Below, one piece after another: positions 24,763 through 50,148 of a DNA stretch of 64,000 bases. Below the pieces are notes generated by a model. It had not been told where the DNA came from. It did no database searches and was given only the letters and a program-made list of their open reading frames with translations. Origin of the DNA: an uncultured Candidatus Cloacimonadota bacterium. Its GTDB lineage: Bacteria; Cloacimonadota; Cloacimonadia; Cloacimonadales; WRIO01. Location: contig CAZNKI010000010.1 in assembly GCA_964573665.1 (NCBI GenBank), positions 1,883 through 65,882 on the forward strand. The letters are read 5' to 3'. The translations under genes were made by a program, and so were the position numbers. Position 1 is the first letter of the stretch. The number at the start of each line of letters is the position of its first letter.

Positions 24763-24768
24763 ATCACC

Positions 24769-25278
24769 TCATTCTATATAACATAGTTCATAGTAGCTAC
24801 ATTGTTCACAAAAGGACTTATTAATCTGCTTAGGAATATTATCATTAATAATAATTGCTTTTATTTTTATAATATGGTTTTCAAGATCGTCAATATCTTT
24901 ATCAGAAAGATATACAGTTTTTTTTTTACGCAATTTTGGATAATCTAATTCTCCTATAAGGTTATCAATGCCAAGATTTCTCAAATAATAAATATAATAC
25001 TTTAATTGCCAAATATGTGCTTTTTCCATTTTAGGTGATTTTTTTATTTCATGTATGATCCCTTCGTTATCAAAGAAATCAATTTTTATTGGACCAATTT
25101 CAATCTCTTTTTTCTCTCTTTGATATGAATCTTCATGAAGAATCTTACCTAGTTCAACAAGCTCTGAGTTGCTTTCCATATTAATTTGATGAGCAAAATA
25201 CCATAATTCACGATGACAAGTGAAATAATAATTTAACATTGTGCCAGTAATAAAGAGGTTTTCATTTAAACTCATCAT
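24769..25278 (-). CDS. cas4: CRISPR-associated exonuclease Cas4 (RecB-like, 4-Cys cluster)
   Basis: 169 aa. N-terminal Cys (FTCHRELWY) plus C-terminal CEQCSYYELC. PD-(D/E)xK core (IDFFD...IHEIKKS). Confidence 0.9.
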   Translation of the reverse strand: MMSLNENLFITGTMLNYYFTCHRELWYFAHQINMESNSELVELGKILHEDSYQREKKEIEIGPIKIDFFDNEGIIHEIKKSPKMEKAHIWQLKYYIYYLRNLGIDNLIGELDYPKLRKKKTVYLSDKDIDDLENHIIKIKAIIINDNIPKQINKSFCEQCSYYELCYIE

Positions 25279-27572
25279 TAGAATATCTCTCCCGCAATAT
25301 CTGTATTAATAACTTCTTTTAGTAATCCTAACTCGGCATTATATTCCAATTTAGCTGTAATTGTTTTAATAACTTTGTCATTAGTCAAATCTACTGTACT
25401 GTGGCTAGAAATCAAATTTTTATTTCTATAATATCCATAGGTGTTTTTATGTATTGAGACAAATAATCCTTCTGCTTCGATATAATGATGATTGTTTATT
25501 AATTCTTCCCACTCTTTAATAAAACAGAAAGGGAGTATTTCAACATTAGTAAATTGCTCATAAAATTGTTCTTCGGTAGTTGAAGAATCTTGGTAGGGTT
25601 TTAATGAGTAAATTGCTTGATTGAAAAAATGAGAAGTATCATCAAATTTCTTTTTTTCTTCTGGTTCCCAATCAGGATATACTAGGTCGATTAATGATTG
25701 TATTGTTGATTCGGAGAGAGTATCAATATCTTTTAACACATCTAGTGTTTTCTTTACTATAGCAGTGGGGTAGATGAAATGATCGTTTTTCCCCGATATA
25801 GTACAGATTTTTACTGTGCATATTCCTTTTTTTCTTTCACGATTAATTCGTCCAAACCGTTGAAGTAGCGCATCAATAGGTGCAGGTTCGGAATATAAAA
25901 CATCGTAGTCTATATTTAAACTTACCTCAATAGCCTGAGTTCCAATGAGTAATCGGGTTTTAGGATCAAGTGCTTTTTCTTCTTTTTTCTGTCTATCTTT
26001 ATATGTGAATCGTGAGTGTAAAAGACATATTTCATCTTGTTGATATTGTTCATTACAAAAATATTGAAAGATTTTTTGCGCATTATTTACCGTATTACAG
26101 ACAACTAAAACTCGTTTCCCTTGCGATAAATCATAATTAATACGATCAATCTGATTTTCAATGTTAGATTCTACTAATTGGATTTTGTGCCTTGTAAAAA
26201 TTTTAAGCAGATCTTGATCAGCCTCAATTATTTGTGATGATTCTAACTGAAGAACCTCAGATATTATTTTTTTTATAAAGCTTGGTAAGGTCGCGGTCAT
26301 AACAAAGATATCTGCTTTTAATGAATTTGTTAAAAATTTCATTACTTCAAGTATTTGCGCAAAAGTAATCGAATCATAGGCATGGATCTCATCAAAGATC
26401 ATTTTACATCCAGCTAATTCTATCAATCCCATCTCAAAATGCTTCACTCCATAGAAATGTTTAAGGAATTGAAAAGGCGTTGTTATCTTTATAGGATTGA
26501 TCATTTTTAAGAATTCTTCTTTATCATTTCTGATCAGCTCATGAACATTATGAGTTTCTGATTGTGAATATTGTGAATAAAGAAATTGATTTAATCGAGA
26601 GTGATGTAAACCAACCTTGTCTTCAAAAATTAGTTTTAATCTTAGGTACATGGCATTGATTGAAGCAGTATAGGGCAATACATAAAATGATCGCCCTTGT
26701 TTGATTGAAAGTTGTGTTTGTAACCAGAGTAAAGCTGCTTCAGTTTTTCCTGAACCAGTAGGAGCTGATAATTGAACAGATCCTTTTGATTTACTGGCTT
26801 TTAATTGATGGTTATAGAAATCCATTCCTTTTTCAAGAAGAGTTGATCGCATTTGATCAAGAGGAGAAAAATCATTATCTATTAGCATTTTTAATGATTT
26901 AACTCCAGCAGAAGCATAATGATCACAAGTTTTTAATCCTCCCCATATTAATAAGTTTTGCATGGAGCCTTCATTTTCCCATTCTTTTCTTAAATATGGG
27001 ATCGCGTATTGTTTAACTGGGTGTATGATGCCATCTAAATTTATCGATTTCAATTCAATTGCTTTTCCATAAACTCTTTGATAAATTTGAGGGAACACAT
27101 GGAAAAACTGTTTAAGATATTCGGATATCATTTTTGTTTTGATATTTGCTTCAAAATTATTATCTTGATCATAGTATCCTAAAGCTTCTTCAAATGTCTT
27201 GTGATGCGATAATATGGTGTACTTTATACATTTAAGCGTGTTTTCTGGACAAGCAATCTTATCAACAAAGGGTAAAGAATAAAACTCATGCCTTTGGTTG
27301 TTCCAATGATTGTTTTGACCTTGTAATAATTTCTGAAACTCTCTATGAACTTTTCCTAAATCATGAAAGCAAATTATAATGAATAATGATTCCCAATAAG
27401 AGAATGGCTGGAAATAGTATTGGATTATGTCATTTAGTTGAGGAATGGATTCTACCATAGAATTCAAGATATTAAAGCATTCGGTGATATGTTCATCCAG
27501 ACTTTTCCCATCTGATTTAGCTAAGACCGATTGATCTATATCAAGAAGCATTTTCCTTAAATCCCCAGACAT
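25278..27572 (-). CDS. cas3: CRISPR-associated helicase/nuclease Cas3 (HD domain plus SF2 helicase)
   Basis: HD region (FHDLGKV, ILSHHK). Helicase motif I APTGSGKTEA, motif II FDEIH, motif VI LQRFGRINR. Start is uncertain: ATG at 27572 or 27551; the listed 27581 is a TTG. Confidence 0.9.
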   Translation of the reverse strand: MSGDLRKMLLDIDQSVLAKSDGKSLDEHITECFNILNSMVESIPQLNDIIQYYFQPFSYWESLFIIICFHDLGKVHREFQKLLQGQNNHWNNQRHEFYSLPFVDKIACPENTLKCIKYTILSHHKTFEEALGYYDQDNNFEANIKTKMISEYLKQFFHVFPQIYQRVYGKAIELKSINLDGIIHPVKQYAIPYLRKEWENEGSMQNLLIWGGLKTCDHYASAGVKSLKMLIDNDFSPLDQMRSTLLEKGMDFYNHQLKASKSKGSVQLSAPTGSGKTEAALLWLQTQLSIKQGRSFYVLPYTASINAMYLRLKLIFEDKVGLHHSRLNQFLYSQYSQSETHNVHELIRNDKEEFLKMINPIKITTPFQFLKHFYGVKHFEMGLIELAGCKMIFDEIHAYDSITFAQILEVMKFLTNSLKADIFVMTATLPSFIKKIISEVLQLESSQIIEADQDLLKIFTRHKIQLVESNIENQIDRINYDLSQGKRVLVVCNTVNNAQKIFQYFCNEQYQQDEICLLHSRFTYKDRQKKEEKALDPKTRLLIGTQAIEVSLNIDYDVLYSEPAPIDALLQRFGRINRERKKGICTVKICTISGKNDHFIYPTAIVKKTLDVLKDIDTLSESTIQSLIDLVYPDWEPEEKKKFDDTSHFFNQAIYSLKPYQDSSTTEEQFYEQFTNVEILPFCFIKEWEELINNHHYIEAEGLFVSIHKNTYGYYRNKNLISSHSTVDLTNDKVIKTITAKLEYNAELGLLKEVINTDIAGEIF

Positions 27573-28231
27573 TCTTGCCAATATATATCAATAGATGATT
27601 TACTGAAGTTACTAATTAATTCTGGATCATTTATTCCTTTGCTTTTTAATTGAACTCCTTTTTTTATATGAGAATCTACGATGTAAAAGGGGATTGTTTG
27701 TTGAGATTTTCGAGGTATTTCATCAGAAAAGCATATGGGTAAAGCTTGAATTGGCGCAGGAATCTGATGTTTTTTAAAGGGGATTATTGTCCCCCTTATA
27801 TTGGAAAGGACATCAATTTCATCGGTTTCCATTTCTGTGATTTTATCAACTCTTGCCAAATCACCGCTTCTACCTAAAAGCAATGGAAATACTGGATTTT
27901 TGAAGTAATCTGAGACTTCTTTTGTATTAGTATATAAATATAGTTGGCAATAAAAGAAGAGTTCTCTTTTTACAATATTGGAATTACCACTATTTGTTTG
28001 GTGCTCTTTTTGATAAATTGTCTCAACATCCCAAGCGGAGGTATCATAGTTAAAATAATAACCTAATTTTAACATTTCATCAGGATGATATAGATCACCC
28101 TTAGCAGCAGAGATTAACCCAAATATTGTTGAGAGAGGAGGAGCTTTTAAAGAAGGCTGGACTCCACTGACAATATTCGGATATCTAAATGAAGCCGTCC
28201 AGCTACTCAGTGATATTTTATATATTCGCAT
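27557..28231 (-). CDS. cas5: Cas5 (type I-B RAMP)
   Basis: 224 aa. N-terminal SLSSWTASFRYPN...PPLSTIFGLISAA pattern typical of Cas5. Positioned between cas7 and cas3. Confidence 0.8.
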   Translation of the reverse strand: MRIYKISLSSWTASFRYPNIVSGVQPSLKAPPLSTIFGLISAAKGDLYHPDEMLKLGYYFNYDTSAWDVETIYQKEHQTNSGNSNIVKRELFFYCQLYLYTNTKEVSDYFKNPVFPLLLGRSGDLARVDKITEMETDEIDVLSNIRGTIIPFKKHQIPAPIQALPICFSDEIPRKSQQTIPFYIVDSHIKKGVQLKSKGINDPELISNFSKSSIDIYWQECLGI

Positions 28232-28234
28232 TTT

Positions 28235-29245
28235 TTAATCCATTATATCAAGTACTGATTGAGTAAATGAGTCAATAATTCTATTAACAGGTCCAAATAC
28301 TATTTTCCCTTCATCATTCATTTTTTTCAGCTCTTCATTGAGTTCGTCCATAAAGCCTTCTCTTTTACCAATATATACATTTTCCTTAAAGAAATCATGA
28401 TACTCAAAGATAATTTCTTCTAAAGCCTTTATTGAGAAAACAGGTTTATCTAATTTTTCTTTAATGATATGTGAAAAGGGGTGATTGGCACTTTTCATTT
28501 TTACTAAGACAATAAGCTTTGGTGTTACATCAGCATAGTTTGTAGTCAATTTTGCTCCTCCACTTATTACTTTAAGCGCTTTTAGCGTATCTTCAATTCT
28601 CTTTTTTCTTATCTCAATAGGGAGTCTAAAGAGTTTAGTTGTTTTTTCTGAATTATATGGATCTTGAATTTCTATTGCTCCATTTTCTTTTGCTTTTTTA
28701 ATAAGAGCTTCGTTGATGTTTTTGTAACCAGTACGATTAGAGTCAGAAAATGTTCCTATTTGATCTGCTGAAAGAGAAAACAAACCTTTTAGTACTGCTG
28801 AATATTCATCTTTTCCATAAGGTACAGGATCTCCATCGCTTCTTCCCATAACTGAAAAATTATGAGCGATTGGATTGTATCCTACTCCAATAAGAGCAGA
28901 ATTTTTTAGAGGAGAATTCCTTGTTAATGTACCACCTTCAGCTGCTTTTGCAGCTCGCATATAACCAAAAATGTCATCATCTGAGTATTCTATAGGATCT
29001 GCTTTAGTATAAGCAATCTTGCTATCTCTTGTTATTGGTGATAATTTCCATTTGAAAGAATTTTCTAGTGTTTCTCTCCACCAATATCTCCAAGCCTGGC
29101 CTGAAATGTAAGGATATTGTTTTCCATTTCTTCTAATTTTCTTGGTAACAGTAGCATTGTCAGATACTGCAGTTTTTTCACTTCCTGCATTATTTAAGGC
29201 AGCAACATCAACATCAATTACAACTAATCCTTGAATATTTAGCAT
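28235..29245 (-). CDS. cas7: Cas7 (type I-B backbone subunit, Cst2/Csh2-like)
   Basis: 336 aa. N-terminal VVIDVDVAALNNAGSE motif typical of Cas7. Position in the operon. Confidence 0.8.
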   Translation of the reverse strand: MLNIQGLVVIDVDVAALNNAGSEKTAVSDNATVTKKIRRNGKQYPYISGQAWRYWWRETLENSFKWKLSPITRDSKIAYTKADPIEYSDDDIFGYMRAAKAAEGGTLTRNSPLKNSALIGVGYNPIAHNFSVMGRSDGDPVPYGKDEYSAVLKGLFSLSADQIGTFSDSNRTGYKNINEALIKKAKENGAIEIQDPYNSEKTTKLFRLPIEIRKKRIEDTLKALKVISGGAKLTTNYADVTPKLIVLVKMKSANHPFSHIIKEKLDKPVFSIKALEEIIFEYHDFFKENVYIGKREGFMDELNEELKKMNDEGKIVFGPVNRIIDSFTQSVLDIMD

Positions 29246-29253
29246 TTCTCCTC

Positions 29254-30657
29254 CTAATATTCTTTCACTTCTTGTTCATCTGGTATCTCGATATCATTAT
29301 TATCAATTTCAATTCTTAAATTTTCTTCATGCATTTTTTCATAGAGATAAATAAGCATTAAGTCTCGAATTTCTGACCAGTATTGCCCATCTGGAAATAA
29401 ATAATTCACATAATCATCCAGCGTAATTAAAGGATCCTGATTCCCTTTTTGATAATTTTTTTTGATCAATAAGAGAATGACTCTTCTTAATTCATGAGCT
29501 GTTTTTGTTGATTCTAACTGGGTTAATACTCTTTTTTGGTCATTGTTTTCTTGCATCATTACAAAAATACTGTTAGTAATTGCTTTGAGTATGTTTATGG
29601 TTTTTGTTTGCATATCTAATACCTCCGTAATATATAGATAGATAATTTCGCTTTTTAATACTGATTTTTTGTTTTGATATTGATGTTTTGCATCATTTCG
29701 AATATAGGATAAGATACTTTTTTCATTTATAAGATTATGAATTATAGTGTTATAAGAGTTTTCGATAATCTCTTCAGATATTTTTATTTGTCTTTTATCC
29801 ACCCAATTATTATTTTCATTATTCCATGTGGCTTTTGATACTTTATAATATTTATAAATGAATTGATTCCAATCGCTTCTTAACTTTGCTTTTGACATTT
29901 TGTATAAGAATGTATATATATTTGAAGGGAGATTGATGATATCAATTTGAGGAGATGTGGCAAAGTTTGAAAAACTATTTATTGTTATATTTTCTGTTGG
30001 ATTTTCTTTGTCAGTATCTATAAATAAATCGATTAATTCTCCAGCTACTTTAATAATCGCATTATTTGGATTTTTGATTGCAGGAGAGAGAAAACCACCT
30101 TTCAGGTTTGTTCCAAAATATTTATTATAATTGTTTGAAATAATTTTATTTTTTATATAAATTCTTATGCCTTCGCTATTGGGTTGTAGAAGAATCAAAT
30201 TTTTACCCTGATATGTTGCCAAAGGTGCGAGAAATATTGCAGTAAGACAATCAGCACATAGCATAAATCCCTTTTCCAGAGCATGGTGGAAATTAACATA
30301 AGTATTCGAACCGCATAAACAATAATTATCTCTTCCCGTAGGGCTTAGATGTTTCATTTGACCACAAATTCTGCAATAACCACTTTCTAACATTGAGTTA
30401 TAGATTGTCTCCGTATAGTATGTTATTGTTTTACTTGTTTTTTTTTCAACAGTATTGTTAGTCTTATGAGTTATTGTAGAATTAAGAAAAAAGCTATGAA
30501 GTTTGCCTTCCCAATTTACTACATACACTTTAGTCACCATAGTAATAAGTTCATTGAGCGATTTATTTGGGTTTTTCTCTTGAAGAAATTCGAGAACTAA
30601 GCGACCATTATCAACAAAGGGATCACCTGTTACATGATCATTATAATTATTTTTCAT
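29254..30657 (-). CDS. cas8b: Cas8b-like large subunit (type I-B)
   Basis: 467 aa. Sits between cas6 and cas7 as expected for the I-B large subunit. Cys-rich segment CRICGQ...CLCGS...CADC. Assignment rests mainly on position. Confidence 0.65.
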   Translation of the reverse strand: MKNNYNDHVTGDPFVDNGRLVLEFLQEKNPNKSLNELITMVTKVYVVNWEGKLHSFFLNSTITHKTNNTVEKKTSKTITYYTETIYNSMLESGYCRICGQMKHLSPTGRDNYCLCGSNTYVNFHHALEKGFMLCADCLTAIFLAPLATYQGKNLILLQPNSEGIRIYIKNKIISNNYNKYFGTNLKGGFLSPAIKNPNNAIIKVAGELIDLFIDTDKENPTENITINSFSNFATSPQIDIINLPSNIYTFLYKMSKAKLRSDWNQFIYKYYKVSKATWNNENNNWVDKRQIKISEEIIENSYNTIIHNLINEKSILSYIRNDAKHQYQNKKSVLKSEIIYLYITEVLDMQTKTINILKAITNSIFVMMQENNDQKRVLTQLESTKTAHELRRVILLLIKKNYQKGNQDPLITLDDYVNYLFPDGQYWSEIRDLMLIYLYEKMHEENLRIEIDNNDIEIPDEQEVKEY

Positions 30658-31459
30658 CTTGTCTCCTTAATAAGTCAACGCATCCCATTCCAGCACTATT
30701 TTTGTCTCCAAAACCACATTCATAGCCAATTTTAATCAATTCAGGATAAGTCTCAATTGTAAAAGGTCCTTCAAAACATTTAATCTTTTCATTATTTTTA
30801 AAGTGAATCAATTTGCTAATTCTCCCACCGGCTTTAACAATATAATTTGGATCAAATGAAAAGTTAAAGAGGATTGGCTGATTCCAGTTTTCAGAGAAAA
30901 TCGTCTTATATTTTTGACAAAGATTATTATAGAGATTAATCTTAAAATGATCTCTTTCTTCAGGATTCATATAATCTAAAAAGTGTTGCTGAAGCTTTCC
31001 ATCGATTTCTTGCATAGTGGACATTGAAATAGGAGAAAGGCATGAAAATGTCATACGGTTTTGATATTCAATTTCTGGCAGTACTTCTACTTCGCTGATC
31101 ATCATTTTTAAAGTATGAGTTTTAAAATTTAAAACTAATATATTGTCTGTAAAAATTCCAAGAACAATATTTTCAAATATTCTATCAACATTGGTAGATA
31201 AAATAAGAGATGCTTTTTTTACATTTCGAAAACCATGCTGATCTTTATGAATTGTAGTAAAGTTATCAAGAAGTAGCTTTGAAAAGGTGAAAAATTTAAA
31301 AACTCTTAAATCGTTATGATATCCCTCATTATGAAGAAAATCTGAGAATAGTGGCTCTGCTTTATTTAAGGTGTTGTATATAGCAGAATGTAATTGATAA
31401 TTATAATTGTATGGAATAAATGACTTGTCTTGAAGAAGAAAATTAATTTTTAATCTCAT
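30647..31459 (-). CDS. cas6: Cas6 crRNA endoribonuclease
   Basis: ATG 31459 (MRLKINFLL) is preceded by AGAGG; the listed 31486 start is a TTG. C-terminal Gly-rich loop GFGDKNSAGMG typical of Cas6. Confidence 0.8.
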   Translation of the reverse strand: MRLKINFLLQDKSFIPYNYNYQLHSAIYNTLNKAEPLFSDFLHNEGYHNDLRVFKFFTFSKLLLDNFTTIHKDQHGFRNVKKASLILSTNVDRIFENIVLGIFTDNILVLNFKTHTLKMMISEVEVLPEIEYQNRMTFSCLSPISMSTMQEIDGKLQQHFLDYMNPEERDHFKINLYNNLCQKYKTIFSENWNQPILFNFSFDPNYIVKAGGRISKLIHFKNNEKIKCFEGPFTIETYPELIKIGYECGFGDKNSAGMGCVDLLRRQDEK

Positions 31460-31525
31460 AAAAACCTCTTGCTGTAAAAACTTCAATGTTTTTCAAAAAA
31501 TAAGACTTTTTTATACACATCGTCA

Positions 31526-34201: not shown

Positions 34202-37174
34202 TTATTTCCCAATTAAGGCGATACCATGTTTCCCGTCCATCTTTATGATCAATGGATGATCAAATCGGCAATGCACACAATATGACTTTTTCTCGAAAAT
34301 AGTTTGTTCTTTGAGCCAATCCCAGTCAATAAACTCATCAGTGTCTGTTTGTGAGTATTTCACATTGAAATAGCCAATATTCATTGCAACAAGATTGTGG
34401 AAGAAGTGCGTACCCTGAGAAGCATCGATGGCAAAATCTTTAATACCAAACTCTACAATAGCTTTGGCAAAATTGATATTTGACCATTTCACAGGAATCC
34501 CCAAGAAGCGGTCACGCGTACCCCATCTTCCTGGACCTAACAAGATATATGGTCTGTTTTGTTGTCTCAATTGATGGTTAAAATAATCAATTTCATTCTG
34601 TATCTCAATGGTTTGGGTCTTATCAAAAAGAATTGGGTCAACATAAACCACATCATAAACATCATCAATCACACCATTTCCCATGCCTTGATTGGTATAA
34701 AGCATCAGATCTTTTTTGTTGATCAGATCCGCATCAATATAGTAGGATACAGGATTTACTGACAAGGGTCGTATCTGTAAGATATTAAAAGTTGGTCTTT
34801 CTTTTTTTATCTCATTTTTACTAAGATCAAGAGCAAATTCGAGTTCCACCGGGATACCTAATGACACTTCGCCAATCTGCATCAGTTCTTCAAGTATTTT
34901 TGCCAGAGGAAAATACTTGTATTTGAGAATGCTGGCAAATGTCAAAACCTTCATCCCTGTCTCATAATAGCCATCGATCATCATTTTATTTTCATAATCC
35001 CATACAGAAACAAGTTGATTCAAGGTTTGATGCTTTTCAGAGGACTTTAAACCAAGTTTGATCAATGTCGCATCTTCGCCTTTCAGGAGGTCAAATTCAT
35101 TTTGATTCAAGTCAATGGCATAAAAATCTTTCTGAGAATTTCTAATAATTTCTTCTGCTGTCAGCAGATCCGTTTCGGGGTATTTTGGGCAAAAACGGTA
35201 ATTATATTTTCCTTCAACGACAGCTTTCCCCAGTCCGAGCGCGATAGTCGCAATCCCATCATCATGCTCCATGTACGAAGTGGGATAAAAGTTGTAAGAT
35301 TGAGCCACACCTGACACATGAGGGTAGTAATAACCCTCTCCATGATTTTTCCCCACCACTTCCTGAATTATGACTGCCATTTTTTCTTCTTCAGTTTTAT
35401 ATGAAAGCGCTTCAATATAATTTCGTGTTTCCTGAAGATAAACAGAAGCAAAAACCAATTTAATTGCATTCATCAATTGCTCGAGTCTTACTTCAAAGCG
35501 CTGATGATTATTGGGAAGCATGAAAGTGCGATAAATGCCAGCAAAGGGTTGAAGTTGTGAATCTTCGAGTAAAGAAGATGATCGTACAGCAATCGGATAA
35601 TCAATTTCCATAAGATAGATACTCAACTTATTGATCAAATCATCACTTAGGGCACAAGAAATAAAAATCTCATCAATTTCAATATCGCTTTTGTTTTTGA
35701 TTAATTCTCCAATATGATGTTTTTCCACGAACAGATCAAATTCGTTAGTGCCAATAATGGCAGTACTGGGTAATGATATATTTACATTTTCAAAACGTTT
35801 TTCAAACTCCATCGAGCTGAGTAAAGCATTTAAAAAAGCAAGTCCTCTGCCTTTTCCACCAAGAGAACCTTCAGCAAGTCTTACAATTTGATTGACTTCG
35901 CTTAGATTTCGCGTTTCAAAGTTAATAATCTTGCCTTTGTACTTCATTTTTCGGACATTTTCAAATACGTCTTTGATAAAATCTCTTAATTCGCTTAAAT
36001 CTTTAAAATCTTCAACTTTGACTGTCCTGATTTTATTAGCAATCTGCACTTCTCCATGGGCGATCAGCCAGTTTGAGAAATGATTGCTTCGGCTATGAAA
36101 TAAGAGGGATTCATCAGGGATATCATCGATCATTTTTTGAAAATCAGCCAATGATTTTGCTTCACAGATCACATTCATTTGGGAATCTTTGAATACAAAA
36201 TTTCCGAAACCCAAATGATCAATGAAGAATCGGCGAAGTTTAGCGAGTAGTTGATCAGAGTTTTTGTCGAGAAATGTGACATTTATCGAATCTGCAATAA
36301 GTTGATTTTCTGATTCGGCAGATTGAAGTATGACAGGCATATCTGGCATTTCACTGCGAATCTTCTTGATGAGTTTAAAACCTGCATGTGGGTCTTCTAT
36401 TCCTGCTCTCTCAAATCGAACATCAGAGATGACGCAGAGCAGATACTCTTTATATTTTTCATAAATCTTAACGGCTTCTTCAAAATTTCTAGCAAGGATT
36501 ATTTTGGGGCGCACTCTCATTCTGAGCCTTCTACCCAGATCATTAAGCTCTTCTTCGATCAGACGTTGCGTTTGCCGCATCACCACCGAATACAAAAGAG
36601 GCATATAGAGAGAATAGTAGTTGATAGAATCTTCTACCAGAAGAATAACGCGGACTAAGCCTCTTTGTGTGTCTAGCTCCATATTCATCATATCTTCAAT
36701 ATTTTTCACCATAGCAAGAAAGAGCTTTGTGTCGGCAGACCAGAGATAAGTATTGTCGATATATTTCATTTCATCTTTATATTTTTCGATTAGTGCAAAA
36801 TCAGCTTTGTTGTTAAGTAAAAGCAGAACAGGCAAGTTGGCGTAATTTTGTTTAACGTATCTTGCAAGTTGAAAGGGTGTCATGTCTCCAATGCGCATCA
36901 TCGTAATGACCAGATCATATTGTCTTTCTTTCAGCGCTTTTATCGCTTCACTGGCAGTGGGAACACTATTGATGCGTGGAGCAGTTGTGAGATTTAATTG
37001 TTTATAATCGCCATAAATCAAGTCATTGAGTTGACCATCCTGTTCAAAAATAAACGCATCGTAGAATGTGGAAACCAAAAGGATATCTCTGATTCTGTGT
37101 TGCATCAACTGATAAAATATATCATCACCATATTTAAAGCGATTGTAATAATGATTGAGTTCTTTGATATTCAT
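34202..37174 (-). CDS. Receiver-domain / PEP-pyruvate-binding (PPDK_N ATP-grasp) fusion protein
   Basis: ATG 37174 (MNIKELNHYY) is preceded by AGGGAG. A pseudo-receiver (DLVITM in place of the acceptor Asp). A second receiver (ILLVEDS...LLCVISDVRF...MPVILQS). PPDK_N-type motifs SLGGKGRGLAFLN and VRSSSLLEDSQLQPFAGIYRTF. I recognised no phosphohistidine swivel domain. Confidence 0.65.
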   Translation of the reverse strand: MNIKELNHYYNRFKYGDDIFYQLMQHRIRDILLVSTFYDAFIFEQDGQLNDLIYGDYKQLNLTTAPRINSVPTASEAIKALKERQYDLVITMMRIGDMTPFQLARYVKQNYANLPVLLLLNNKADFALIEKYKDEMKYIDNTYLWSADTKLFLAMVKNIEDMMNMELDTQRGLVRVILLVEDSINYYSLYMPLLYSVVMRQTQRLIEEELNDLGRRLRMRVRPKIILARNFEEAVKIYEKYKEYLLCVISDVRFERAGIEDPHAGFKLIKKIRSEMPDMPVILQSAESENQLIADSINVTFLDKNSDQLLAKLRRFFIDHLGFGNFVFKDSQMNVICEAKSLADFQKMIDDIPDESLLFHSRSNHFSNWLIAHGEVQIANKIRTVKVEDFKDLSELRDFIKDVFENVRKMKYKGKIINFETRNLSEVNQIVRLAEGSLGGKGRGLAFLNALLSSMEFEKRFENVNISLPSTAIIGTNEFDLFVEKHHIGELIKNKSDIEIDEIFISCALSDDLINKLSIYLMEIDYPIAVRSSSLLEDSQLQPFAGIYRTFMLPNNHQRFEVRLEQLMNAIKLVFASVYLQETRNYIEALSYKTEEEKMAVIIQEVVGKNHGEGYYYPHVSGVAQSYNFYPTSYMEHDDGIATIALGLGKAVVEGKYNYRFCPKYPETDLLTAEEIIRNSQKDFYAIDLNQNEFDLLKGEDATLIKLGLKSSEKHQTLNQLVSVWDYENKMMIDGYYETGMKVLTFASILKYKYFPLAKILEELMQIGEVSLGIPVELEFALDLSKNEIKKERPTFNILQIRPLSVNPVSYYIDADLINKKDLMLYTNQGMGNGVIDDVYDVVYVDPILFDKTQTIEIQNEIDYFNHQLRQQNRPYILLGPGRWGTRDRFLGIPVKWSNINFAKAIVEFGIKDFAIDASQGTHFFHNLVAMNIGYFNVKYSQTDTDEFIDWDWLKEQTIFEKKSYCVHCRFDHPLIIKMDGKHGIALIGK

Positions 37175-37568
37175 AGAATGCTCCCTATCCACCTTTTGTA
37201 ATAGAATAATATGTTTTTTACTGAAAGTCAATAAGTATATTAAAAAATGAAATTCTAAGGTGAAATTTTTGTTTTCTGTTATGATGATTTTGTTGTTTAA
37301 CTTTTTGACTTTAGTTTTTTGATATCTGCAAAACGAGAGCTTTAAATTAGAATAATAACTGATAATTTTTATTGAATCACTTTCTGAATAGCAAGTTATC
37401 ATCACTCGAAAAATGAAATGGCTCGCACCTATAGCGCTTGTAATGCAGGTTGAAACCATGTATTTACATATGATGCTGATCATGAGTATTTTTAGTTAAG
37501 AGATTAATGGAGATTTTTTATTATGAATAGATTCGAGCAAAGCACTCTTTGTGTGATGACAATTACTA

Positions 37569-41800: not shown

Positions 41801-42208
41801 ATGGCTTTTGGAGAAAAGATTAAACAGATCAGTTTTCCTACAGTGATCAGTAAAGAAACTGAAATCATTGGCGATTTAAAACTGAAAGATAATCTCTGGG
41901 TTGAAGGAAAAATTTCTGGCTGTGTGGAAAGCCAACAAATGATCCACATTGCTCAACAAGCAACCATCAAAGGAGATGTAAAAGCTTCCGATATGTTTGT
42001 CGCTGGACAGATTAAAGGTAACATCAGCATAACGGGCACTCTTGAACTTGACCGCGAAAGCAAAATAGAAGGCGATATATTTGCCCGAAATATCAAAATT
42101 CATTTAGGTGCTGTGATCAACGGGCATCTTGAAATGAAGCAGGAAAAACAGAAACTACAGAATGAATCTCAAATTCAAGATCCTGATGAATCTTCTGGAC
42201 ATTCATGA
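41801..42208 (+). CDS. Bactofilin (polymer-forming cytoskeletal protein, DUF583)
   Basis: 135 aa. Repetitive beta-helix pattern (IIGDLKLKDNLWVEGKISG...IKGDVKASDMFVAGQIKGNISITG...IEGDIFARNIKI). Its stop overlaps the next start (ATGA at 42205-42208). Confidence 0.8.
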   Translation: MAFGEKIKQISFPTVISKETEIIGDLKLKDNLWVEGKISGCVESQQMIHIAQQATIKGDVKASDMFVAGQIKGNISITGTLELDRESKIEGDIFARNIKIHLGAVINGHLEMKQEKQKLQNESQIQDPDESSGHS

Positions 42209-42468
42209 AAAAGCAAAACTTGTTCTCTCATCTTGATATCAATTACAAAGCAGATACAGGATTATTGTCTGCTTTAACACTACTGATGCAGGTGGGGTTG
42301 GTGATGATCGGCTCTGTATTAATCTGGATATTAATTTTCTTCTTTATTCGCCGTTATTTTTCATTGAGTCATTACTTTCTGATTATCGGGGTTATATTTG
42401 GATTATGCTCAGGTTTTATTGCTGATTATCATCTTTTAAAACGATATTTGAAACGACAAGGGAAATGA
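42205..42468 (+). CDS. Small two-TM membrane protein, AtpZ/AtpI-like
   Basis: 87 aa with two hydrophobic helices, immediately upstream of atpI/atpB. Assignment rests on position and topology only. Confidence 0.4.
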   Translation: MKKQNLFSHLDINYKADTGLLSALTLLMQVGLVMIGSVLIWILIFFFIRRYFSLSHYFLIIGVIFGLCSGFIADYHLLKRYLKRQGK

Positions 42469-42867
42469 ATGCATAATAAAAAATTTATGAAGCGAATTCT
42501 GTTTATAATTTTCTTGACAAACCTACCTTTGCTAATTATATTACCAATATTCTACAAAGAAGTCATAGGGTGGTTGTGCGGATCAATCGCAAGCGCAGGG
42601 AATTTTTACTGGCTATTCCGACAAGTTAACTCATTGAATATTTATGATGATAAGGATAGTTCTAAACGCGCTGGAGCAGGTTTTTATACCCGATATTTAA
42701 GTATTGTTGTATGGTCTTTTGCTGTGATGATATTACTGAAACCTAACGTAATTCTTTTTGGATTAGGTTTGTTTTCAGCACAAATTTCCATATATATCAA
42801 CGAGGCTTATGAATTTTTAAAAAAGGGCCCATGGGGCAAATATTATAGAGGTGACCAAGATGAATAA
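42469..42867 (+). CDS. atpI: ATP synthase protein I-like membrane protein
   Basis: 132 aa with four hydrophobic segments. Canonical position directly before atpB. Weak sequence evidence. Confidence 0.5.
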   Translation: MHNKKFMKRILFIIFLTNLPLLIILPIFYKEVIGWLCGSIASAGNFYWLFRQVNSLNIYDDKDSSKRAGAGFYTRYLSIVVWSFAVMILLKPNVILFGLGLFSAQISIYINEAYEFLKKGPWGKYYRGDQDE

Positions 42868-43768
42868 AAAAATGTCTTTGAAGATGATTTTGTTAATCTT
42901 TTTTATTGTTGAGCTTTTTATCGCATTTCTGTTTTTAGGTAAAACACTGCATATTGGGACTCATCCTGAAACTGGCCAAAAAATATGGCTTGAAGAAAAA
43001 CATGAAAAAATGACCCATGAAATTGATAAAGATATTCAGCCAGACCTCTATGTAATTGAAGAGAATATTACAGAACCATGGGAATTTACCTATGGCAGTA
43101 AAGCACTTTATGATTTATTTAAAAGCAAGTTCCCCAAAACAGCTATCCTAAACTTCCGATTATATAGAATGGTCTTGTTTCTTGATATTTTTGTGCTTTT
43201 GCTTGCAATCTTTATTCGCATGAAATCCTCAAAACTTCCCTCAAAAGTTCAATTGATGTTTGAAATGTTTTATAAATTCTTTGATGATTTAGTAGGAGAA
43301 ACATTAGGTGAAAATAGAAAGAATTATACAAAATTCTTCTTTACAATTTTCTTCTTTATCTGGTTAAGCAATTGGTCTTCTTTACTTCCAATTCCAGGAA
43401 TTTCTGAGCCAACTAGAAATCTTAATGTCCCTTTAGGTATGGGGTTGATGTCCATTGGTCTCGTTCATTTTATGGCTTTGAGAAAAAAAGGGATTGTTGA
43501 ATATGTTAAAGGCTTTTGTGAGCCTGTGTTTTTCTTAGCTCCTTTAAACATTGTCGGCGAATTATCAAAAATCATATCGATCTCTTTCCGTTTGTTTGGC
43601 AATATTTTTGGTGGAGCAATAATCACACTTGTTGTGTCAAATTTAACAAAGTTTGTTTTGGTGCCTGTGGGCTTGAATATGTTTTTCACTATGTTTGCGG
43701 GAACAGTTCAGGCATTCGTATTCACCATGTTATCATTAACATATTTATCCATGGAAATTGCAGATTAA
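42860..43768 (+). CDS. atpB: F-type ATP synthase subunit a
   Basis: Conserved SFRLFGNIFGG (essential Arg) and C-terminal helices. ATG 42860 is preceded by AGAGGTGA; the listed 42851 start is a GTG. Long hydrophilic insertion after the first TM helix. Confidence 0.85.
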   Translation: MNKKMSLKMILLIFFIVELFIAFLFLGKTLHIGTHPETGQKIWLEEKHEKMTHEIDKDIQPDLYVIEENITEPWEFTYGSKALYDLFKSKFPKTAILNFRLYRMVLFLDIFVLLLAIFIRMKSSKLPSKVQLMFEMFYKFFDDLVGETLGENRKNYTKFFFTIFFFIWLSNWSSLLPIPGISEPTRNLNVPLGMGLMSIGLVHFMALRKKGIVEYVKGFCEPVFFLAPLNIVGELSKIISISFRLFGNIFGGAIITLVVSNLTKFVLVPVGLNMFFTMFAGTVQAFVFTMLSLTYLSMEIAD

Positions 43769-43786: not shown

Positions 43787-44539
43787 ATGATTTTACAATC
43801 AGACTTAGCAGAAATTTTATTATACGCTGGCGCTGCTTTAAGTACAGGAATTGCATCATTAAGTGCTGGATTTGGTGAAGGATACACTGCCGGTGCTGCA
43901 GCAAAGGCAGTCATGCGTCAACCTAAAGCCAATGAGACAATCTTGCGTTCGATGCTGATCAGTCAGGCGGTCACCGAATCTGGAGCAATTTTTGCGCTTG
44001 TTGTATCAATGCTCTTGATTTTTGGTGGTGCTGCCGAAATGGGCATTGACTGGGCAAAATCATTTAGTTATTTAGGAGCTGGTTTAGCTATGGGTTTAGG
44101 ATGTACCGGACCAAATTTTGGTTCAGGTTATTCAGGAGCCATTGCCATTGATGGGATTAGCCGTAATCCTTCGAAAAGTGGCAGAATTACTGCAAATATG
44201 CTTATTGGTCAGGCATTATCTCAAACCTCAGCGATCTTCGCTCTGGTGGTCTCACTATTACTGATTTATATGGTTCCAACTCAGATGGTAGAACCCACTT
44301 TAAGTAAAGTGATTGTCAAATCATGTGCCTATGTTGCGGCAGGATTAACTATTGGATTTGGTACTTTAGGACCTGGTGCAGGTATCGGGTTTGTTGCAGG
44401 AAAAGCCAATATGATGCTGTCAAAATATTCAAAAGATCAGTCGGTGATCACACGAACCATGTTTTTAGGGGCAGCTGTTTCTGAATCTACATCAATTTAC
44501 GCATTAGTTGTCGCTTTCTTATTAATCTTTGTATCATAA
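43787..44539 (+). CDS. Fused three-hairpin (triplicated) F-type ATP synthase c subunit
   Basis: Three tandem c-hairpins: SAGFGEGYTAG...RQP...SQAVTESGAIFALV; TGPNFGSGYSGA...RNP...GQALSQTSAIFALV; LGPGAGIGFVAG...GAAVSESTSIYALV. Ion-site residues are E64, Q146 and E233. Confidence 0.8.
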   Translation: MILQSDLAEILLYAGAALSTGIASLSAGFGEGYTAGAAAKAVMRQPKANETILRSMLISQAVTESGAIFALVVSMLLIFGGAAEMGIDWAKSFSYLGAGLAMGLGCTGPNFGSGYSGAIAIDGISRNPSKSGRITANMLIGQALSQTSAIFALVVSLLLIYMVPTQMVEPTLSKVIVKSCAYVAAGLTIGFGTLGPGAGIGFVAGKANMMLSKYSKDQSVITRTMFLGAAVSESTSIYALVVAFLLIFVS

Positions 44540-44565: not shown

Positions 44566-44841
<276 letters not shown>

Positions 44842-44881: not shown

Positions 44882-45361
44882 ATGACTGTAGATTTCACCC
44901 TCGTATTGGTCATTCTGAATTTTATTCTGCTGATGATCGTTTTAAATCAGATTCTTTACAAACCCTTAAAGATGTTTTTAAGCGATCGTCAAAAACAGAT
45001 TCTTGCGGATATTGACGAAGCTAAAGAATCGATTAAAAAAGCTGAAGCTTTAGCCAAACAAAGAGAAGAAGAACTTAAATTAGCAATGGATGAAGCACGT
45101 AAGCTGAAAGAAAGTATCAAAGTTGATGCAGAAAAGCAAGCAGAGAAAATTCTGGAAATTGCTAAAAATCAAGAAAAAGAAGTGCTTAAACAAACTGAAA
45201 TTCGAATTCAGCAGGAAATGAAGCATGCGGTTCATGAATTACAAAGCCAGATATCTGAAATGGTTGCTGATTTATCTGCACAATTCATTCAATCAAAGAT
45301 TGATAAAGATTCAGATAAATTAATCATTGAGAAGATGATTCAGGATCGGAGTCAATCGTGA
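44882..45361 (+). CDS. atpF: F-type ATP synthase subunit b
   Basis: 159 aa. A single N-terminal TM helix then a long charged helix. Position in the operon. Confidence 0.8.
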   Translation: MTVDFTLVLVILNFILLMIVLNQILYKPLKMFLSDRQKQILADIDEAKESIKKAEALAKQREEELKLAMDEARKLKESIKVDAEKQAEKILEIAKNQEKEVLKQTEIRIQQEMKHAVHELQSQISEMVADLSAQFIQSKIDKDSDKLIIEKMIQDRSQS

Positions 45362-45903
45362 AAGATTTGATTATTGCGAAGCGATATGCCAAATCAGCGA
45401 TTTGTAATATTCCCGCAGCGTCACTAAATATCTTCTTAGAAGAGACACAATCTCTTTTAGAAATATTAAACACGAATAAAGACCTGTTTGACATATTACG
45501 GTCAAAAATTGTGCTCACCAGCAATAAGCTTGATTTTCTTGAGTCAATTATTGCTGATTATCAGTTAAACGAATTTTGGCACTCATTTTTTTTGTTGTTG
45601 ACCTCAAAAAAACGAGAAGATAATTTGATCCAGATTCTTTCTGAGATTATCAATCAGATTCATTTAGATAATAATAGTAAAGAAATTGATTTGATTCTTG
45701 CTTTTGAACACTCAGAAGAAGTGCTTAAATCAATTATTTCTTTACTTGAGAGAAAAATGGGTCATAAAATAGTGTATCATGTCAAAATTGATAAAGATAT
45801 TATTGGCGGTTTTATTGCCAGACGCGAAGATTTTTATATGGACGCTTCGGTTAAAGGCAATTTAAAACAATTTGTTCAACAATCTTTCTTAAATAAACAA
45901 TGA
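45358..45903 (+). CDS. atpH: F-type ATP synthase subunit delta (OSCP)
   Basis: 181 aa. Lies between atpF and atpA. C-terminal [21 protein letters not shown] pattern typical of delta. Confidence 0.75.
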
Positions 45904-45910
45904 GGAATAT

Positions 45911-47413
45911 ATGAGTATTCATCCTGATGAGATAAGCTCAATCATTAGAAATAAGATTGACAATTTCCAGTTTGATATTGATATCAAAGAAACTGGAAAA
46001 GTCGTTCAGGTCGGTGATGGTATTGCCCGTGTTTATGGTCTCGAAAAAGTAATGGCAGGCGAAATGGTGCTTTTCCCTAATGATATTTTTGGTATGGCAC
46101 TTAACCTTGAACAGGAAAATGTTGGCTGTATTATTTTCGGAGACAGTAAATACATTAAAGAAGGTGATACTGTTAAACGAACAGGACGTATTTTAGAGGT
46201 ACCGGTTGGAGAAGCAATGCTCGGAAGAGTAGTCAATTCTCTCGGTCAACCAATTGATGGAAAGGGTGAGATCAAAACAGATATCTTTTACCCCATCGAA
46301 CGTAAAGCGCTTGGCGTGATTGATCGCCAACCTGTAAAGGAACCTTTACAAACAGGGATCAAACCGATCGACTCAATGATTCCAATCGGACGTGGTCAAC
46401 GTGAATTAATCATTGGCGATCGTCAAACAGGAAAAACAGCAATAGCTCTTGATACAATTATTAATCAAAAAGGAAAAGATGTCATTTGCGTGTACGTTGC
46501 TGTAGGTCAAAAAAGATCAACTGTAGCAAAACTCGTAGATACATTAGAGAAGAATGGCGCAATGAGTTATACGATTGTCGTTTGCGCGAGTGCTTCTGAT
46601 ACTCCTTCAATGCTCTATGTCGCTCCTTATGCAGGATGTAGCATGGGCGAATTCTTTAGAGATAAAGGACAGCATGCACTGATTATATATGATGATTTAT
46701 CAAAACATGCTGCGGCTTACCGTGAAATATCTTTACTCTTACGTCGTCCACCAGGACGTGAAGCATATCCTGGTGATGTATTCTATTTACATTCACGCTT
46801 ACTTGAACGCGCATCCAAACTGAGTGATAAATTAGGCGGTGGCTCTCTAACAGCCCTCCCAATTATTGAAACTAAAGCAGAAGATATTTCAGCTTATATT
46901 CCGACAAATGTGATCTCGATTACAGACGGTCAGATTTATCTGAGTTCAAGACTCTTCTACTCTGGTATTCGTCCTGCAATTAATCCGGGATTATCAGTCT
47001 CTCGTGTGGGTGGTAGTGCGCAAATTAAAGCGATGAAATCAGTCGTTGGTCAGTTACGTCTCGACCTGGCTCAATATAATGAACTTGAAGCCTTTTCAAA
47101 GTTCGGCTCTGACCTGGATAAAGCGACACAGGCTCAGCTTCGCAGAGGCGAAAGATTGATTGAAATCTTAAAACAAGACTTGTATAATCCACTCCCTGTA
47201 AAAAAACAGATATTCATTATATTTATGGCAAATGAAGGCTATTTGGATGATATCGAACTTGATAAGATTTTACAGGTTGAAAAAGACTTGTTCACATTGA
47301 TCGATTCAAAGTATTCTGATTTTGTTGAGGAGATGATTAAAGATAAAATCACAGACTCAATGAAGGAAAAAATGCATGACATCTGTAAAGAAATTGTTGC
47401 TAATTACAAATAA
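45911..47413 (+). CDS. atpA: F-type ATP synthase subunit alpha
   Basis: 500 aa. Walker [10 protein letters not shown]. Highly conserved blocks ([46 protein letters not shown]). Confidence 0.97.
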
Positions 47414-47433: not shown

Positions 47434-48291
47434 ATGGCTAATTTAAGAGATTTGAGAACTCGAATCAACTCCATCAAGAATACTAAGCAAATCACAAATG
47501 CGATGAAGATGGTCGCTGCTGCAAAATTGAGAAAATCACAAGATGCCGTAGTAAAATCTCGTCCTTATTCTGATTATGTAGATAAGATGTTACGCTTGTT
47601 ACAAAAGAAAAATAACACTAATCCACATCCAATGTTGATTTCTCCAAATAAGAATGGGAAAGTATTATTACTCATCGTTACTGGTGACAGAGGCTTATGC
47701 GGTTCTTTCAATTCGAGTATTACCCGATATGCAAATCATTACATCAAAGATAATCCAAACGTTTCTTTTGATGTTTTTTGTATTGGCCGAAAAGGCTATG
47801 ATTCTTTCAAAAGAAAAGTGACTGTGATGAATCATTTTAGCGGTATTGGCGAAAATGTTAGTTTTGATGTAATTGACCCCATTCGAGAATCATTGTTACA
47901 GGTCTATTCATCTGGAGATTATGCTCGGGTAGAAGTGATCTTTAACGAATTTAAATCAGCAATTCAGCAAGACTTGGTGTGCAAACAACTTTTACCTGTT
48001 GTTCCATCTGAAACTGAAGATATCTCTATGGTTGATTTTATTTATGAACCTGATGAAAATTCTCTGATTGAAGAACTTTGTATCAAGTACATTAATGTGG
48101 AACTTTGGCGTGTTCTTTTAGAATCAAATGCAGCGGAACAAGGCGCTCGTATGACAGCTATGGATAATGCTACCAATAATGCCAGCGATTTAATCAATCA
48201 GTTAAGTTTACAATACAATCGTGAGCGTCAAGCTCAAATTACGACAGAAATTATCGAAGTTGCTTCAGGCGCTGAAGCAATCAAACAATAA
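47434..48291 (+). CDS. atpG: F-type ATP synthase subunit gamma
   Basis: 285 aa. N-terminal LRDLRTRINSIKNTKQITNAMKMVAAAKLRK and C-terminal NRERQAQITTEIIEVASGAEA. Confidence 0.93.
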   Translation: MANLRDLRTRINSIKNTKQITNAMKMVAAAKLRKSQDAVVKSRPYSDYVDKMLRLLQKKNNTNPHPMLISPNKNGKVLLLIVTGDRGLCGSFNSSITRYANHYIKDNPNVSFDVFCIGRKGYDSFKRKVTVMNHFSGIGENVSFDVIDPIRESLLQVYSSGDYARVEVIFNEFKSAIQQDLVCKQLLPVVPSETEDISMVDFIYEPDENSLIEELCIKYINVELWRVLLESNAAEQGARMTAMDNATNNASDLINQLSLQYNRERQAQITTEIIEVASGAEAIKQ

Positions 48292-48323: not shown

Positions 48324-49736
<1,413 letters not shown>

Positions 49737-49749
49737 AATGGAATGATCT

Positions 49750-50148
49750 ATGAGTAATATACATGTTGAAATCGTACAACCAACGGGTGTTAAGCTCGAT
49801 TTGATGATAGATTCGATTATCCTGCCCGGTATAGATGGCGATTTTGAGGTACTTGCGGATCATACACCATTTATTACCAAGCTTAGACCAGGGACTCTTT
49901 TCATCCAGAAAGAGGATCAGGAAATTAAATATGCCATTCATGACGGATTTGTTACTGTCGAGAATAATCGTATTATTGTTATTTCTGATACAGTAGAGTC
50001 TTCATCTGAAATCGATATCAAGCGTGCCGAAGCTGCAAAAGAAAGAGCAGAAAAACGTCTGTTTTCAGAAAATAAAGAATCAGTTGATTTTAGACGGGCT
50101 GAGATTGCACTTCATCGTGCAATTGCTCGAATTAATACAATTTCCTAA
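49750..50148 (+). CDS. atpC: F-type ATP synthase subunit epsilon
   Basis: 132 aa. N-terminal beta-sandwich and a C-terminal helical hairpin (IDIKRAEAAKERAEKRL). Last gene of the operon. Confidence 0.9.
   Translation: MSNIHVEIVQPTGVKLDLMIDSIILPGIDGDFEVLADHTPFITKLRPGTLFIQKEDQEIKYAIHDGFVTVENNRIIVISDTVESSSEIDIKRAEAAKERAEKRLFSENKESVDFRRAEIALHRAIARINTIS

Follow-up and report, generated by a model that had tools for sequence, protein, structure and literature searches.

A fused three-hairpin c subunit in the F-type ATP synthase operon of an uncultured Candidatus Cloacimonadota bacterium

In an ATP synthase, the count of ion sites in the c-ring fixes the ion/ATP ratio. In the reviews on which we draw, F-type c subunits are described as single hairpins of fewer than 100 amino acids (aa) (PMC2359735). 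What, then, is to be made of a c subunit in which three hairpins are joined in one polypeptide and the middle hairpin lacks the ion-binding carboxylate? The question is raised by a 64,000-nucleotide stretch of DNA (contig CAZNKI010000010.1 of assembly GCA_964573665.1; here, the window) from an uncultured Candidatus Cloacimonadota bacterium, in which an open reading frame (ORF) of 250 aa, termed c3x (43787..44539, + strand), lies between atpB and the gene for an 87-aa single-hairpin c subunit. An earlier reading of the letters alone (the original prediction) had proposed that this ORF encodes three tandem c hairpins within a canonical F-type operon. The analysis presented here leads us to conclude, with a probability of about 0.72, that c3x is a genuine three-hairpin (six-helix) F-type c subunit that is selectively maintained and most likely resides within the same ring as the single c.

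The fused subunit and its family

The architecture of c3x is defined by profile searches, structure prediction and fold comparison. The ORF begins with an ATG preceded, 8 nt upstream, by a Shine-Dalgarno-like GAGG, and its product matches PF00137 in three stretches (135 bits, E 1e-39, Pfam cut-off 24). NCBIfam equivalogs for the F0F1 c subunit (NF005521, NF009998, NF009999) score 144-158 bits over the whole protein and 50-63 bits per hairpin, whereas V-type K models reach at most 54 bits against their own cut-offs of 101-211. AlphaFold2 (AF2), supplied with a 96-sequence alignment, returned a model (pLDDT 92.3, pTM 0.87) with helices at residues 5-44, 46-79, 89-126, 128-161, 172-213 and 215-248, that is, six transmembrane helices in three hairpins, each with the helix-loop-helix form of an F-type c subunit (pLDDT 92). 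Kyte-Doolittle hydropathy gave a strong signal for the three outer helices only, the inner ones being rich in Gly and Ala, and the AF2 secondary structure was used instead. The top Foldseek match in the PDB is the two-hairpin c1 subunit of Acetobacterium woodii (4bem_J), followed by V-type proteolipids, each spanning two of the three hairpins; the phmmer match to c1 has an E value of 1.8e-25.

With ion-site positions numbered as in the Ilyobacter tartaricus c subunit (32 | 63, 65, 66, 67, 70), the three hairpins differ in the residues that they place there. Hairpin 1 (aa 1-84; 43787..44038, +) has E|V,E,S,G,F, with E31 at position 32 and the carboxylate E64 (GAA, 43976-43978), and its own 66/67/70 set (S,G,F) is degenerate. 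Hairpin 2 (aa 85-164; 44039..44278, +) has S|L,Q,T,S,F, with S114 at position 32 and Q146 (CAA, 44222-44224) at position 65. Hairpin 3 (aa 165-250; 44279..44539, +) has I|V,E,S,T,Y, with I200 at position 32, the carboxylate E233 (GAA, 44483-44485), and S234, T235 and Y238 intact. Midway along the C-terminal helix, the essential carboxylate is thus present in hairpins 1 and 3 and absent from hairpin 2. An alignment of five sequences (the three hairpins, I. tartaricus c and the neighbouring 87-aa c, which reads E|V,E,S,T,Y) is colinear through both helices and gap-free in the functional core, and it places Q146 opposite the ion-site Glu of I. tartaricus. In the phmmer alignment with 4bem_J, likewise, Q146 falls opposite the Glu that binds Na+ in c1 hairpin 1, and E233 opposite the Gln of c1 hairpin 2; Q146 therefore stands at the ion-site position.

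The cytoplasmic loop of c hairpins faces gamma and epsilon in known enzymes. In c3x this loop reads RQP in hairpin 1 and RNP in hairpin 2, and in hairpin 3 it is S-K-Y-S-K-D (residues 212-217; 44420-44437), with KYS in place of an R-x-P motif; among the family's third hairpins RFP or RYP is found in 62 of 96 proteins and KYS in just two. The count of three hairpins in a single 250-aa polypeptide, the two Glu residues and the Gln, the location of the latter inside the ion site and the loss of the third loop motif had all been read from the letters in the original prediction, and all stand after the Pfam matches, the AF2 model, the codons and the alignments.

Is the fusion real? Tandem c genes such as atpE1-E2-E3 of A. 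woodii could in principle be merged by missed stops or frameshifts, and the window is probably metagenome-derived; beyond this a priori possibility nothing speaks for an assembly or annotation artefact, and the evidence makes one exceedingly improbable. The exact 250-aa protein occurs on seven independently assembled contigs, the four of them shown coming from four sequencing runs and carrying the same neighbours. A homologue search with the c3x protein among 5.8 billion proteins returned 1059 relatives, the best 120 of which include 95 three-hairpin proteins of 242-257 aa with the same uninterrupted architecture at 52-98% identity; where named, these three-hairpin relatives are Candidatus Cloacimonadota, Cloacimonetes or Cloacimonadales. 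In all, the uninterrupted ORF recurs in more than 100 clusters of homologues. Four- and five-hairpin (4x/5x) versions are present in isolate genomes, for example those of Desulfatibacillum alkenivorans DSM 16219 and Desulfosarcina variabilis. Additionally, the hairpins of c3x are only ~38-43% identical among themselves, so that the fusion must be old and not a product of recent tandem copying. On the strength of the independent assemblies, the homologues and the ratio of nonsynonymous to synonymous substitution rates (dN/dS) given next, the artefact is rejected; the search of related genomes for orthologues that the original prediction had called for does find them.

Measured against the closest homologue with available DNA (L088, 85% aa identity), dN/dS is 0.06 for c3x overall, 0.06, 0.03 and 0.09 for hairpins 1, 2 and 3, and 0.04 for the single c, values that are rough upper bounds given a saturated dS (>1.2), although their direction is safe; the L088 pair alone is quoted, dS for more distant homologues being saturated or undefined. 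All hairpins are under purifying selection, and the carboxylate-less hairpin 2 is the most constrained. A single c with the E32/E65/S66/T67/Y70 motif then follows the fused gene in 4/4 exact-match loci, in 27 of 31 metagenome loci and in two further Cloacimonadota loci (L121 and L122), and in the remaining four metagenome loci the fused gene lies at or near a contig end. A fused c is the norm for F-type operons in the Cloacimonadota loci examined. A three-hairpin bacterial F-type c is real, as had been proposed, and it is not a one-off, 4x/5x forms occurring in Desulfobacterota as well.

While the architecture is constant, the carboxylates are not. In a census of 96 Cloacimonadota three-hairpin representatives, EQE (the pattern of c3x, which is included) accounts for 59, QQE for 23, EQQ for eight, EEE for five and QQQ for one; the metagenome loci add 15 EQE and 13-14 EEE, and all five variants are found in orthologous, syntenic operons. 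With the site columns left out of the tree, Fitch parsimony requires at least one, three and four E/Q switches in hairpins 1, 2 and 3, at least eight altogether. Carboxylate number in the Cloacimonadota fused c thus looks like a tuned character. Two of the orthologues, at L121:5808-6560 (P0096) and L122:7001-7756 (P0108), have QQQ (no carboxylate at all) or QQE (one, in the last hairpin) in complete syntenic operons, and the fused subunit can evidently be a pure spacer.

Ion-site ligands and the composition of the rotor

In c-rings the ion is held between neighbouring hairpins, with Glu65 and Gln/Glu32 from one subunit and the Val63 carbonyl and Ser66 from the other, and Thr67 and Tyr70 belong to the same network (PMC3692424, PMC2359735). 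The two-carboxylate Na+ site with the E32/E65/S66/T67/Y70 motif is described from crystallography of the Fusobacterium nucleatum ring (PMC3692424), and in the naturally fused NtpK proteolipid of Enterococcus hirae the preceding hairpin supplies Leu61 and Thr64, while Gln110 and Glu139 belong to the hairpin after it (PMC2359735). Our description of site geometry combines these published structures with a residue-association test on 225 distinct multi-hairpin proteins from two phyla and three architectures. Internal hairpins keep S/T66-S/T67-Y70 before a carboxylate hairpin (48/48) and not before a Gln hairpin (0/424; Fisher p 2e-27, with counts that ignore kinship). The last hairpin, which has no successor within its own polypeptide, keeps this set in 221/225 proteins, and in 62/63 of those whose own last carboxylate is Gln; the first hairpin keeps E32 and E65 in 188/225. 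Both outer faces are thus retained as half-sites, the other half of each working site being supplied by the adjoining subunit, as would be expected of a fused subunit incorporated into a ring.

At the sequence level, the full Na+ ligand set is present in the single c (E,V,E,S,T,Y) and in the combination of E31/E64 of hairpin 1 with V,S,T,Y of hairpin 3. By its residues, only hairpin 1 of c3x looks like a full Na+ site. Among the carboxylate hairpins of the Cloacimonadota family that lack the E/E pair, 138 of 150 have Ile or Val at position 32, as does hairpin 3. The Propionigenium modestum cQ32I mutant of Kaim et al. (1997) reportedly loses Na+ coupling but not H+ or Li+ coupling. Because of Ile200 and this mutant, hairpin 3 is probably not a normal Na+ site. 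The original prediction was right that c3x carries two carboxylates, but a count of two equivalent Na+ sites is probably too generous, given I200 at position 32 and a Phe in hairpin 2 where Tyr70 is expected.

The following arrangement is therefore proposed as a model. The c3x gene would be co-transcribed with that of the normal single-hairpin c, and both products would enter one membrane rotor ring, as does A. woodii c1. Hairpin 1 (E31/E64) would form a complete two-carboxylate Na+ site closed by the V-S-T-Y face of the preceding subunit, hairpin 2 (S114/Q146) would be a blank, and E233 of hairpin 3 would form an atypical site with I200 as the helix-1 ligand and T147, S148 and F151 contributed by hairpin 2. 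Only poor Na+ binding would be expected at this last site, which may instead transport H+ or remain protonated. The V-S-T-Y face of hairpin 3 would in turn complete the Na+ site of the next subunit.

Once an artefact is set aside, two other explanations compete with a shared ring. The fused and the single c might each build a homomeric rotor, for example (c3x)4 with 12 hairpins alongside c11, so that a single operon would supply two populations of enzyme that differ in their ion/ATP ratio. The V-S-T-Y face of hairpin 3 and the E/E pair of hairpin 1 are complementary between two fused copies as well. Covalently linked hairpins, some with mutated carboxylates, can form working F-type rings: Jones and Fillingame in 1998 reportedly obtained functional rings from laboratory-made fused c2 and c3 (c-dimers and c-trimers) of Escherichia coli, and Mitome et al. 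in 2004 are said to have made fused c2-c10 constructs of Bacillus PS3. However, the two genes are adjacent, with separate regulation not evident in any examined locus that offers enough sequence, and a homomeric ring of QQQ subunits, or of the EQQQQ subunits found in Desulfobacterota, would have 0-2 carboxylates per turn and be energetically implausible or dead. The sole experimentally studied precedent, that of A. woodii, is moreover described as a hybrid ring of nine single-hairpin c subunits and one c1 (PMC9171764). We regard separate rotors as unlikely.

Less likely still is a function of the fused c as an assembly template, nucleator or regulator of c-ring formation that is absent from the mature enzyme. 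AtpI, a ring-assembly factor, is encoded in the same operon, and a subunit of the QQQ type, without any carboxylate, could be accommodated in such a role. Against this, the ion-site ligands are kept at both boundary faces and purifying selection acts strongly on E31/E64 and E233, neither of which is expected of a mere template, and A. woodii c1 is a true member of its ring.

The preference for a ring shared by c3x and the single c must be set against several considerations. The boundary pattern fits a ring of the fused subunit alone equally well, and a hybrid ring is favoured because the single-c gene is invariably present and because of the A. woodii analogy, and for no other reason. The association statistics take no account of shared ancestry, the dN/dS values are rough, and the prediction that Ile at position 32 probably abolishes Na+ binding depends on the cQ32I work. 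Common descent of the Cloacimonadota 3x and the Desulfobacterota 4x/5x forms, with hairpins orthologous position by position, is hinted at by mean identities (45-46% between first hairpins, 44-47% between hairpin 2 and the middle hairpins, and 45% between hairpin 3 and the last) but gains no support from neighbour-joining (NJ) bootstraps (34, 9 and 1/100). The ring size of 11 used below is assumed from other Na+ rings and not derived. Above all, c3x is known here from its sequence and a predicted structure, and its ring incorporation and copy number, the ring size and the ion specificity of each site are inferred.

Operon context and other multi-hairpin c subunits

The neighbouring genes, identified by their Pfam matches, bear out the original prediction of a canonical F-type operon, which is complete (atpZ-I-B-c3x-c-F-H-A-G-D-C, all on the + strand) and is arranged alike in the syntenic loci. 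Its first gene encodes an atpZ-like small membrane protein (42205..42468) that falls just under the family cut-off (PF09527 ATPase_gene1, E 1.4e-5, 25.5 bits, cut-off 26.6) and is also called in the syntenic loci. It is followed by atpI, of the c-ring assembly factor family (42469..42867; PF03899, 30.5 bits, cut-off 25.1), and by atpB, encoding the Fo stator subunit a (42851..43768; PF00119, 154 bits, residues 113-300), with its conserved Arg within ISISFRLFGN. Gene callers place the atpB start three codons later on identical contigs, giving 302 aa. At 302-305 aa, subunit a carries ~110 residues N-terminal to the PF00119 match, and its length is kept at 296-303 aa in other Cloacimonadota loci; the subunit a encoded beside the Desulfobacterota 4x/5x c has just 223-239 aa. 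Downstream of c3x, the 87-aa single-hairpin c (44578..44841; PF00137, 65 bits; E32, V63, E65, S66, T67, Y70) has a strong AGGAGG Shine-Dalgarno sequence. It is a single hairpin, as had been proposed, and is not of the Q...ES/T type, since it has a Glu at position 32 as in F. nucleatum. The operon is completed by atpF for subunit b (44882..45361; PF00430, 71 bits), atpH for subunit delta (OSCP) (45358..45903; PF00213, 92 bits), atpA for alpha (45911..47413; PF00006, PF00306, PF02874), atpG for gamma (47434..48291; PF00231, 319 bits), atpD for beta (48339..49736; PF00006, PF02874) and atpC for epsilon (49750..50148; PF02823, PF00401).

Two other identities for the locus were considered and rejected. 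An N-ATPase (atpDCQRBEFAG) is contradicted by the canonical I-B-E-F-H-A-G-D-C order and the presence of delta/OSCP; with TIGR03322, c3x as a whole scores 128 bits against a cut-off of 130.85, and its individual hairpins 47-54 bits. An archaeal A-type or V-type enzyme is contradicted by the presence of a, b, delta and epsilon genes and by the low scores of the V-type K models (at most 54 bits).

The closest known counterpart of c3x is the c1 subunit of A. woodii and Clostridium aceticum (4BEM), which is likewise a multi-hairpin c encoded after atpB and before a single c in an F-type operon, has a Glu-to-Gln replacement in one hairpin, belongs to an enzyme of Na+-motif type and is the best match in sequence and fold. 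This precedent for a multi-hairpin c with a carboxylate-less hairpin beside a single c is described in PMC7911925 and PMC9171764, and the hybrid rotor, with fewer ion sites than hairpins, is given 3.3 Na+/ATP (PMC9171764). By comparison, c3x has three hairpins rather than two, a length of 250 aa, its blank in the middle hairpin, an additional, atypical carboxylate site in which position 32 is Ile, and the two-carboxylate (E32) motif instead of Q...ET. The A. woodii c1 precedent cited in the original prediction is an analogue of c3x and not an orthologue. The hairpins of c1 share 71-72% identity with A. woodii c2 and 33-40% with the Cloacimonadota hairpins, and A. woodii, F. nucleatum and I. 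tartaricus form a clade in 99/100 NJ bootstraps apart from all Cloacimonadota hairpins, which for their part form a clade together in 0/100 and never group with A. woodii. Orthology with c1 is rejected on these identities and this clade, and because the c1 hairpins cluster apart, the Cloacimonadota fusion is an independent invention with a different architecture.

Other known systems share single features with c3x. The Methanocaldococcus jannaschii proteolipid also joins three hairpins and six transmembrane helices in one polypeptide. It reportedly has two carboxylates and one hairpin without (Ruppert et al., 1999), the one missing being that of the first hairpin. This triplicated proteolipid of an archaeal A1AO enzyme (PMC2359735, PMC9171764) differs from c3x in its A-type lineage and in having no accompanying single-hairpin subunit, and c3x itself scores 54 bits with V/A K models vs 158 bits with F-type models. 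The F. nucleatum c subunit (3ZK1) has the same Glu32, Val63, Glu65, Ser66, Thr67, Tyr70 set as the single c of the window, and the E/E pair of hairpin 1, but unlike the window it forms a homomeric c11 ring of single hairpins. The V-type 16-kDa proteolipids (E. hirae NtpK, eukaryotic Vo c) resemble c3x in their fused hairpins and in drawing ligands from consecutive hairpins, with one carboxylate per two hairpins and a TM-score of 0.76-0.85 to c3x over two hairpins; they differ in their V-type lineage, their four helices and their rings of fused subunit only. In the sources consulted, triplicated proteolipids are otherwise known from archaeal A-type enzymes only. As the original prediction had supposed, our search of the full-text literature found no bacterial F-type c with three or more hairpins, although the distribution review of Brandt and Muller (2015) could list such genes.

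The homologue search that yielded the Cloacimonadota relatives also returned c proteins of four (~325 aa) and five (~405 aa) hairpins. A scan of GTDB with one genome per species gave at least 471 confirmed stretches, and the best 80 of these are all Desulfobacterota (Desulfarculia, Desulfobacterales), the carriers including Desulfocarbo indianensis, Dethiosulfatarculus sandiegensis, Desulfatitalea alkaliphila, Desulfatibacillum alkenivorans DSM 16219 and Desulfosarcina variabilis (L008-L087, e.g. L037:5986-7245, L043 and L008; also L005:8001-9563 and L006:8001-9575). Their patterns are EQQE (22), EQQQ (24), EQQQE (15) and EQQQQ (~15), with up to four consecutive carboxylate-less hairpins. The genes occupy the slot atpI-atpB-c(n)x-c-b'-b, in which the c directly downstream of each fused gene is a single hairpin that carries the two-carboxylate motif and is 74% identical to the Cloacimonadota single c. 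As in c3x, E/E is found in the first hairpin and S/Q in the middle, and S-T-Y is kept in the last; unlike c3x, these proteins have one or two carboxylates in four or five hairpins, and the Fo genes often lie apart from those of F1. Derivation of the 5x from the 4x form by duplication of hairpin 2 is moderately supported by the trees (76/100 bootstraps). Public databases annotate such multi-hairpin c proteins just as 'ATP synthase F0 subunit C', and the literature searched contains no publication describing the Desulfobacterota 4x/5x c.

Further fusions lie outside both groups. At L007:5566-7164, a single c and a full F-type operon come after a 434-aa five-hairpin EEEEE c with Ile/Leu at position 32. 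The hairpins of this EEEEE protein most resemble the single c of the same locus (58-72% identity), which suggests a separate, more recent multiplication, and the locus may represent a third origin of fused c, with weak support in the tree (44/100 bootstraps). An exhaustive phmmer search of 1.84 billion representatives found 2x to 15x proteins among its top 150 matches. Giant proteolipids of 7, 8, 10, 12, 13 and 15 hairpins, with a carboxylate in each, are whole-ring fusions (P0206, P0215, P0224, P0253, P0272 and P0297). The 15-hairpin protein (1139 aa; L119:7001-10420) adjoins a V_ATPase_I gene and is therefore of A/V-type, like that of Methanopyrus kandleri, and not F-type. A four-hairpin E-Q-E-D c of 321 aa (L120:6270-7966; P0199; GCA_964495945.1), which stands for 24 clusters at 50% identity, is encoded directly after an F-type a subunit and is followed by a glycosyltransferase gene, with no single c, b, delta or F1 genes nearby, which leaves it and the a subunit as an orphan a + c4 pair.

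Elsewhere in the window, at 19100-23300 and 23770-31486, a large CRISPR array that holds ~63 copies of the 30-nt repeat GTTTCAATTCCAATATGGTCTGATTAAAAG with ~36-nt spacers adjoins minus-strand type I cas genes (Cas1, Cas3 helicase, Cas7/DevR-like and Cas6), and a 1092-aa protein (34202-37483, - strand) combines a response-regulator receiver domain with PPDK_N, an ATP-binding domain of the pyruvate phosphate dikinase type, an unusual pairing. No functional link to the ATP synthase was found in this wider window (CRISPR-Cas, a helicase, the PPDK-like protein, parAB, bactofilin).

Consequences for energy coupling

If c3x enters the ring, every incorporated copy would take at least one and probably two Na+ sites from it at unchanged ring size, and fewer Na+ sites per ring would mean a lower Na+/ATP ratio. 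Rings of 11 hairpins are those of I. tartaricus, F. nucleatum and A. woodii. In an assumed ring of this size, one copy of c3x would leave 9-10 sites, or 3.0-3.3 ions/ATP instead of 3.67, and two copies would leave 7-9 sites. By our arithmetic, the ion potential at equilibrium would rise from ~141 mV (n = 3.67) to ~173 mV (n = 3.0) if the phosphorylation potential is 50 kJ/mol. For A. woodii, such a rotor has been interpreted as a means of gaining more ATP per ion at low phosphorylation potential (PMC7911925); alternatively, a higher Na+ potential per ATP hydrolysed would be of use for reverse electron flow in syntrophs. As to the physiological direction in the organism of the window, we infer either ATP synthesis from an Rnf-made Na+ gradient or the ATP-driven build-up of a higher Na+ potential.

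More tentatively, and with the odds in our judgement against it, c3x may belong to a large and apparently undescribed class of 'gear-setting' fused blocks of three to five hairpins placed among ordinary Na+-binding c subunits, with the number and kind of sites tuned by evolution. If so, the blocks would hold 0-3 carboxylates in Cloacimonadota and down to one in five hairpins in Desulfobacterota. In the Cloacimonadota ring, full two-carboxylate Na+ sites would stand together with a blank and with a hydrophobic E/I site carrying either H+ or no ion, which would make the ring a rotor of mixed specificity with an inbuilt irregular torque profile. A rotor with EQQQQ subunits would have to cross up to four ion-less hairpins, ~130 degrees of an 11-hairpin ring, a rotation that current models of torque generation do not cover.

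Until now, the natural F-type enzymes in which hairpin number was known to be uncoupled from site number were those of A. woodii and C. aceticum only, with a two-hairpin c1. The same principle has arisen independently and been extended to three, four and five hairpins with 0-3 sites, and the fused c is standard in the examined loci of a candidate phylum that abounds in anaerobic digesters, and is common among Desulfobacterota, culturable species such as Desulfatibacillum alkenivorans and Desulfosarcina variabilis among them. The ion/ATP ratio decides how much ATP is gained per ion or how steep a gradient can be built per ATP, and it is critical for syntrophs, fermenters and sulfate reducers that live close to the thermodynamic limit. 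How a rotor turns past ion-less hairpins, how the stoichiometry of its subunits is fixed and whether mixed Na+/H+ rotors exist have become testable questions, and a standard Na+/ATP ratio should not be assumed in metabolic models of organisms with a fused c subunit.

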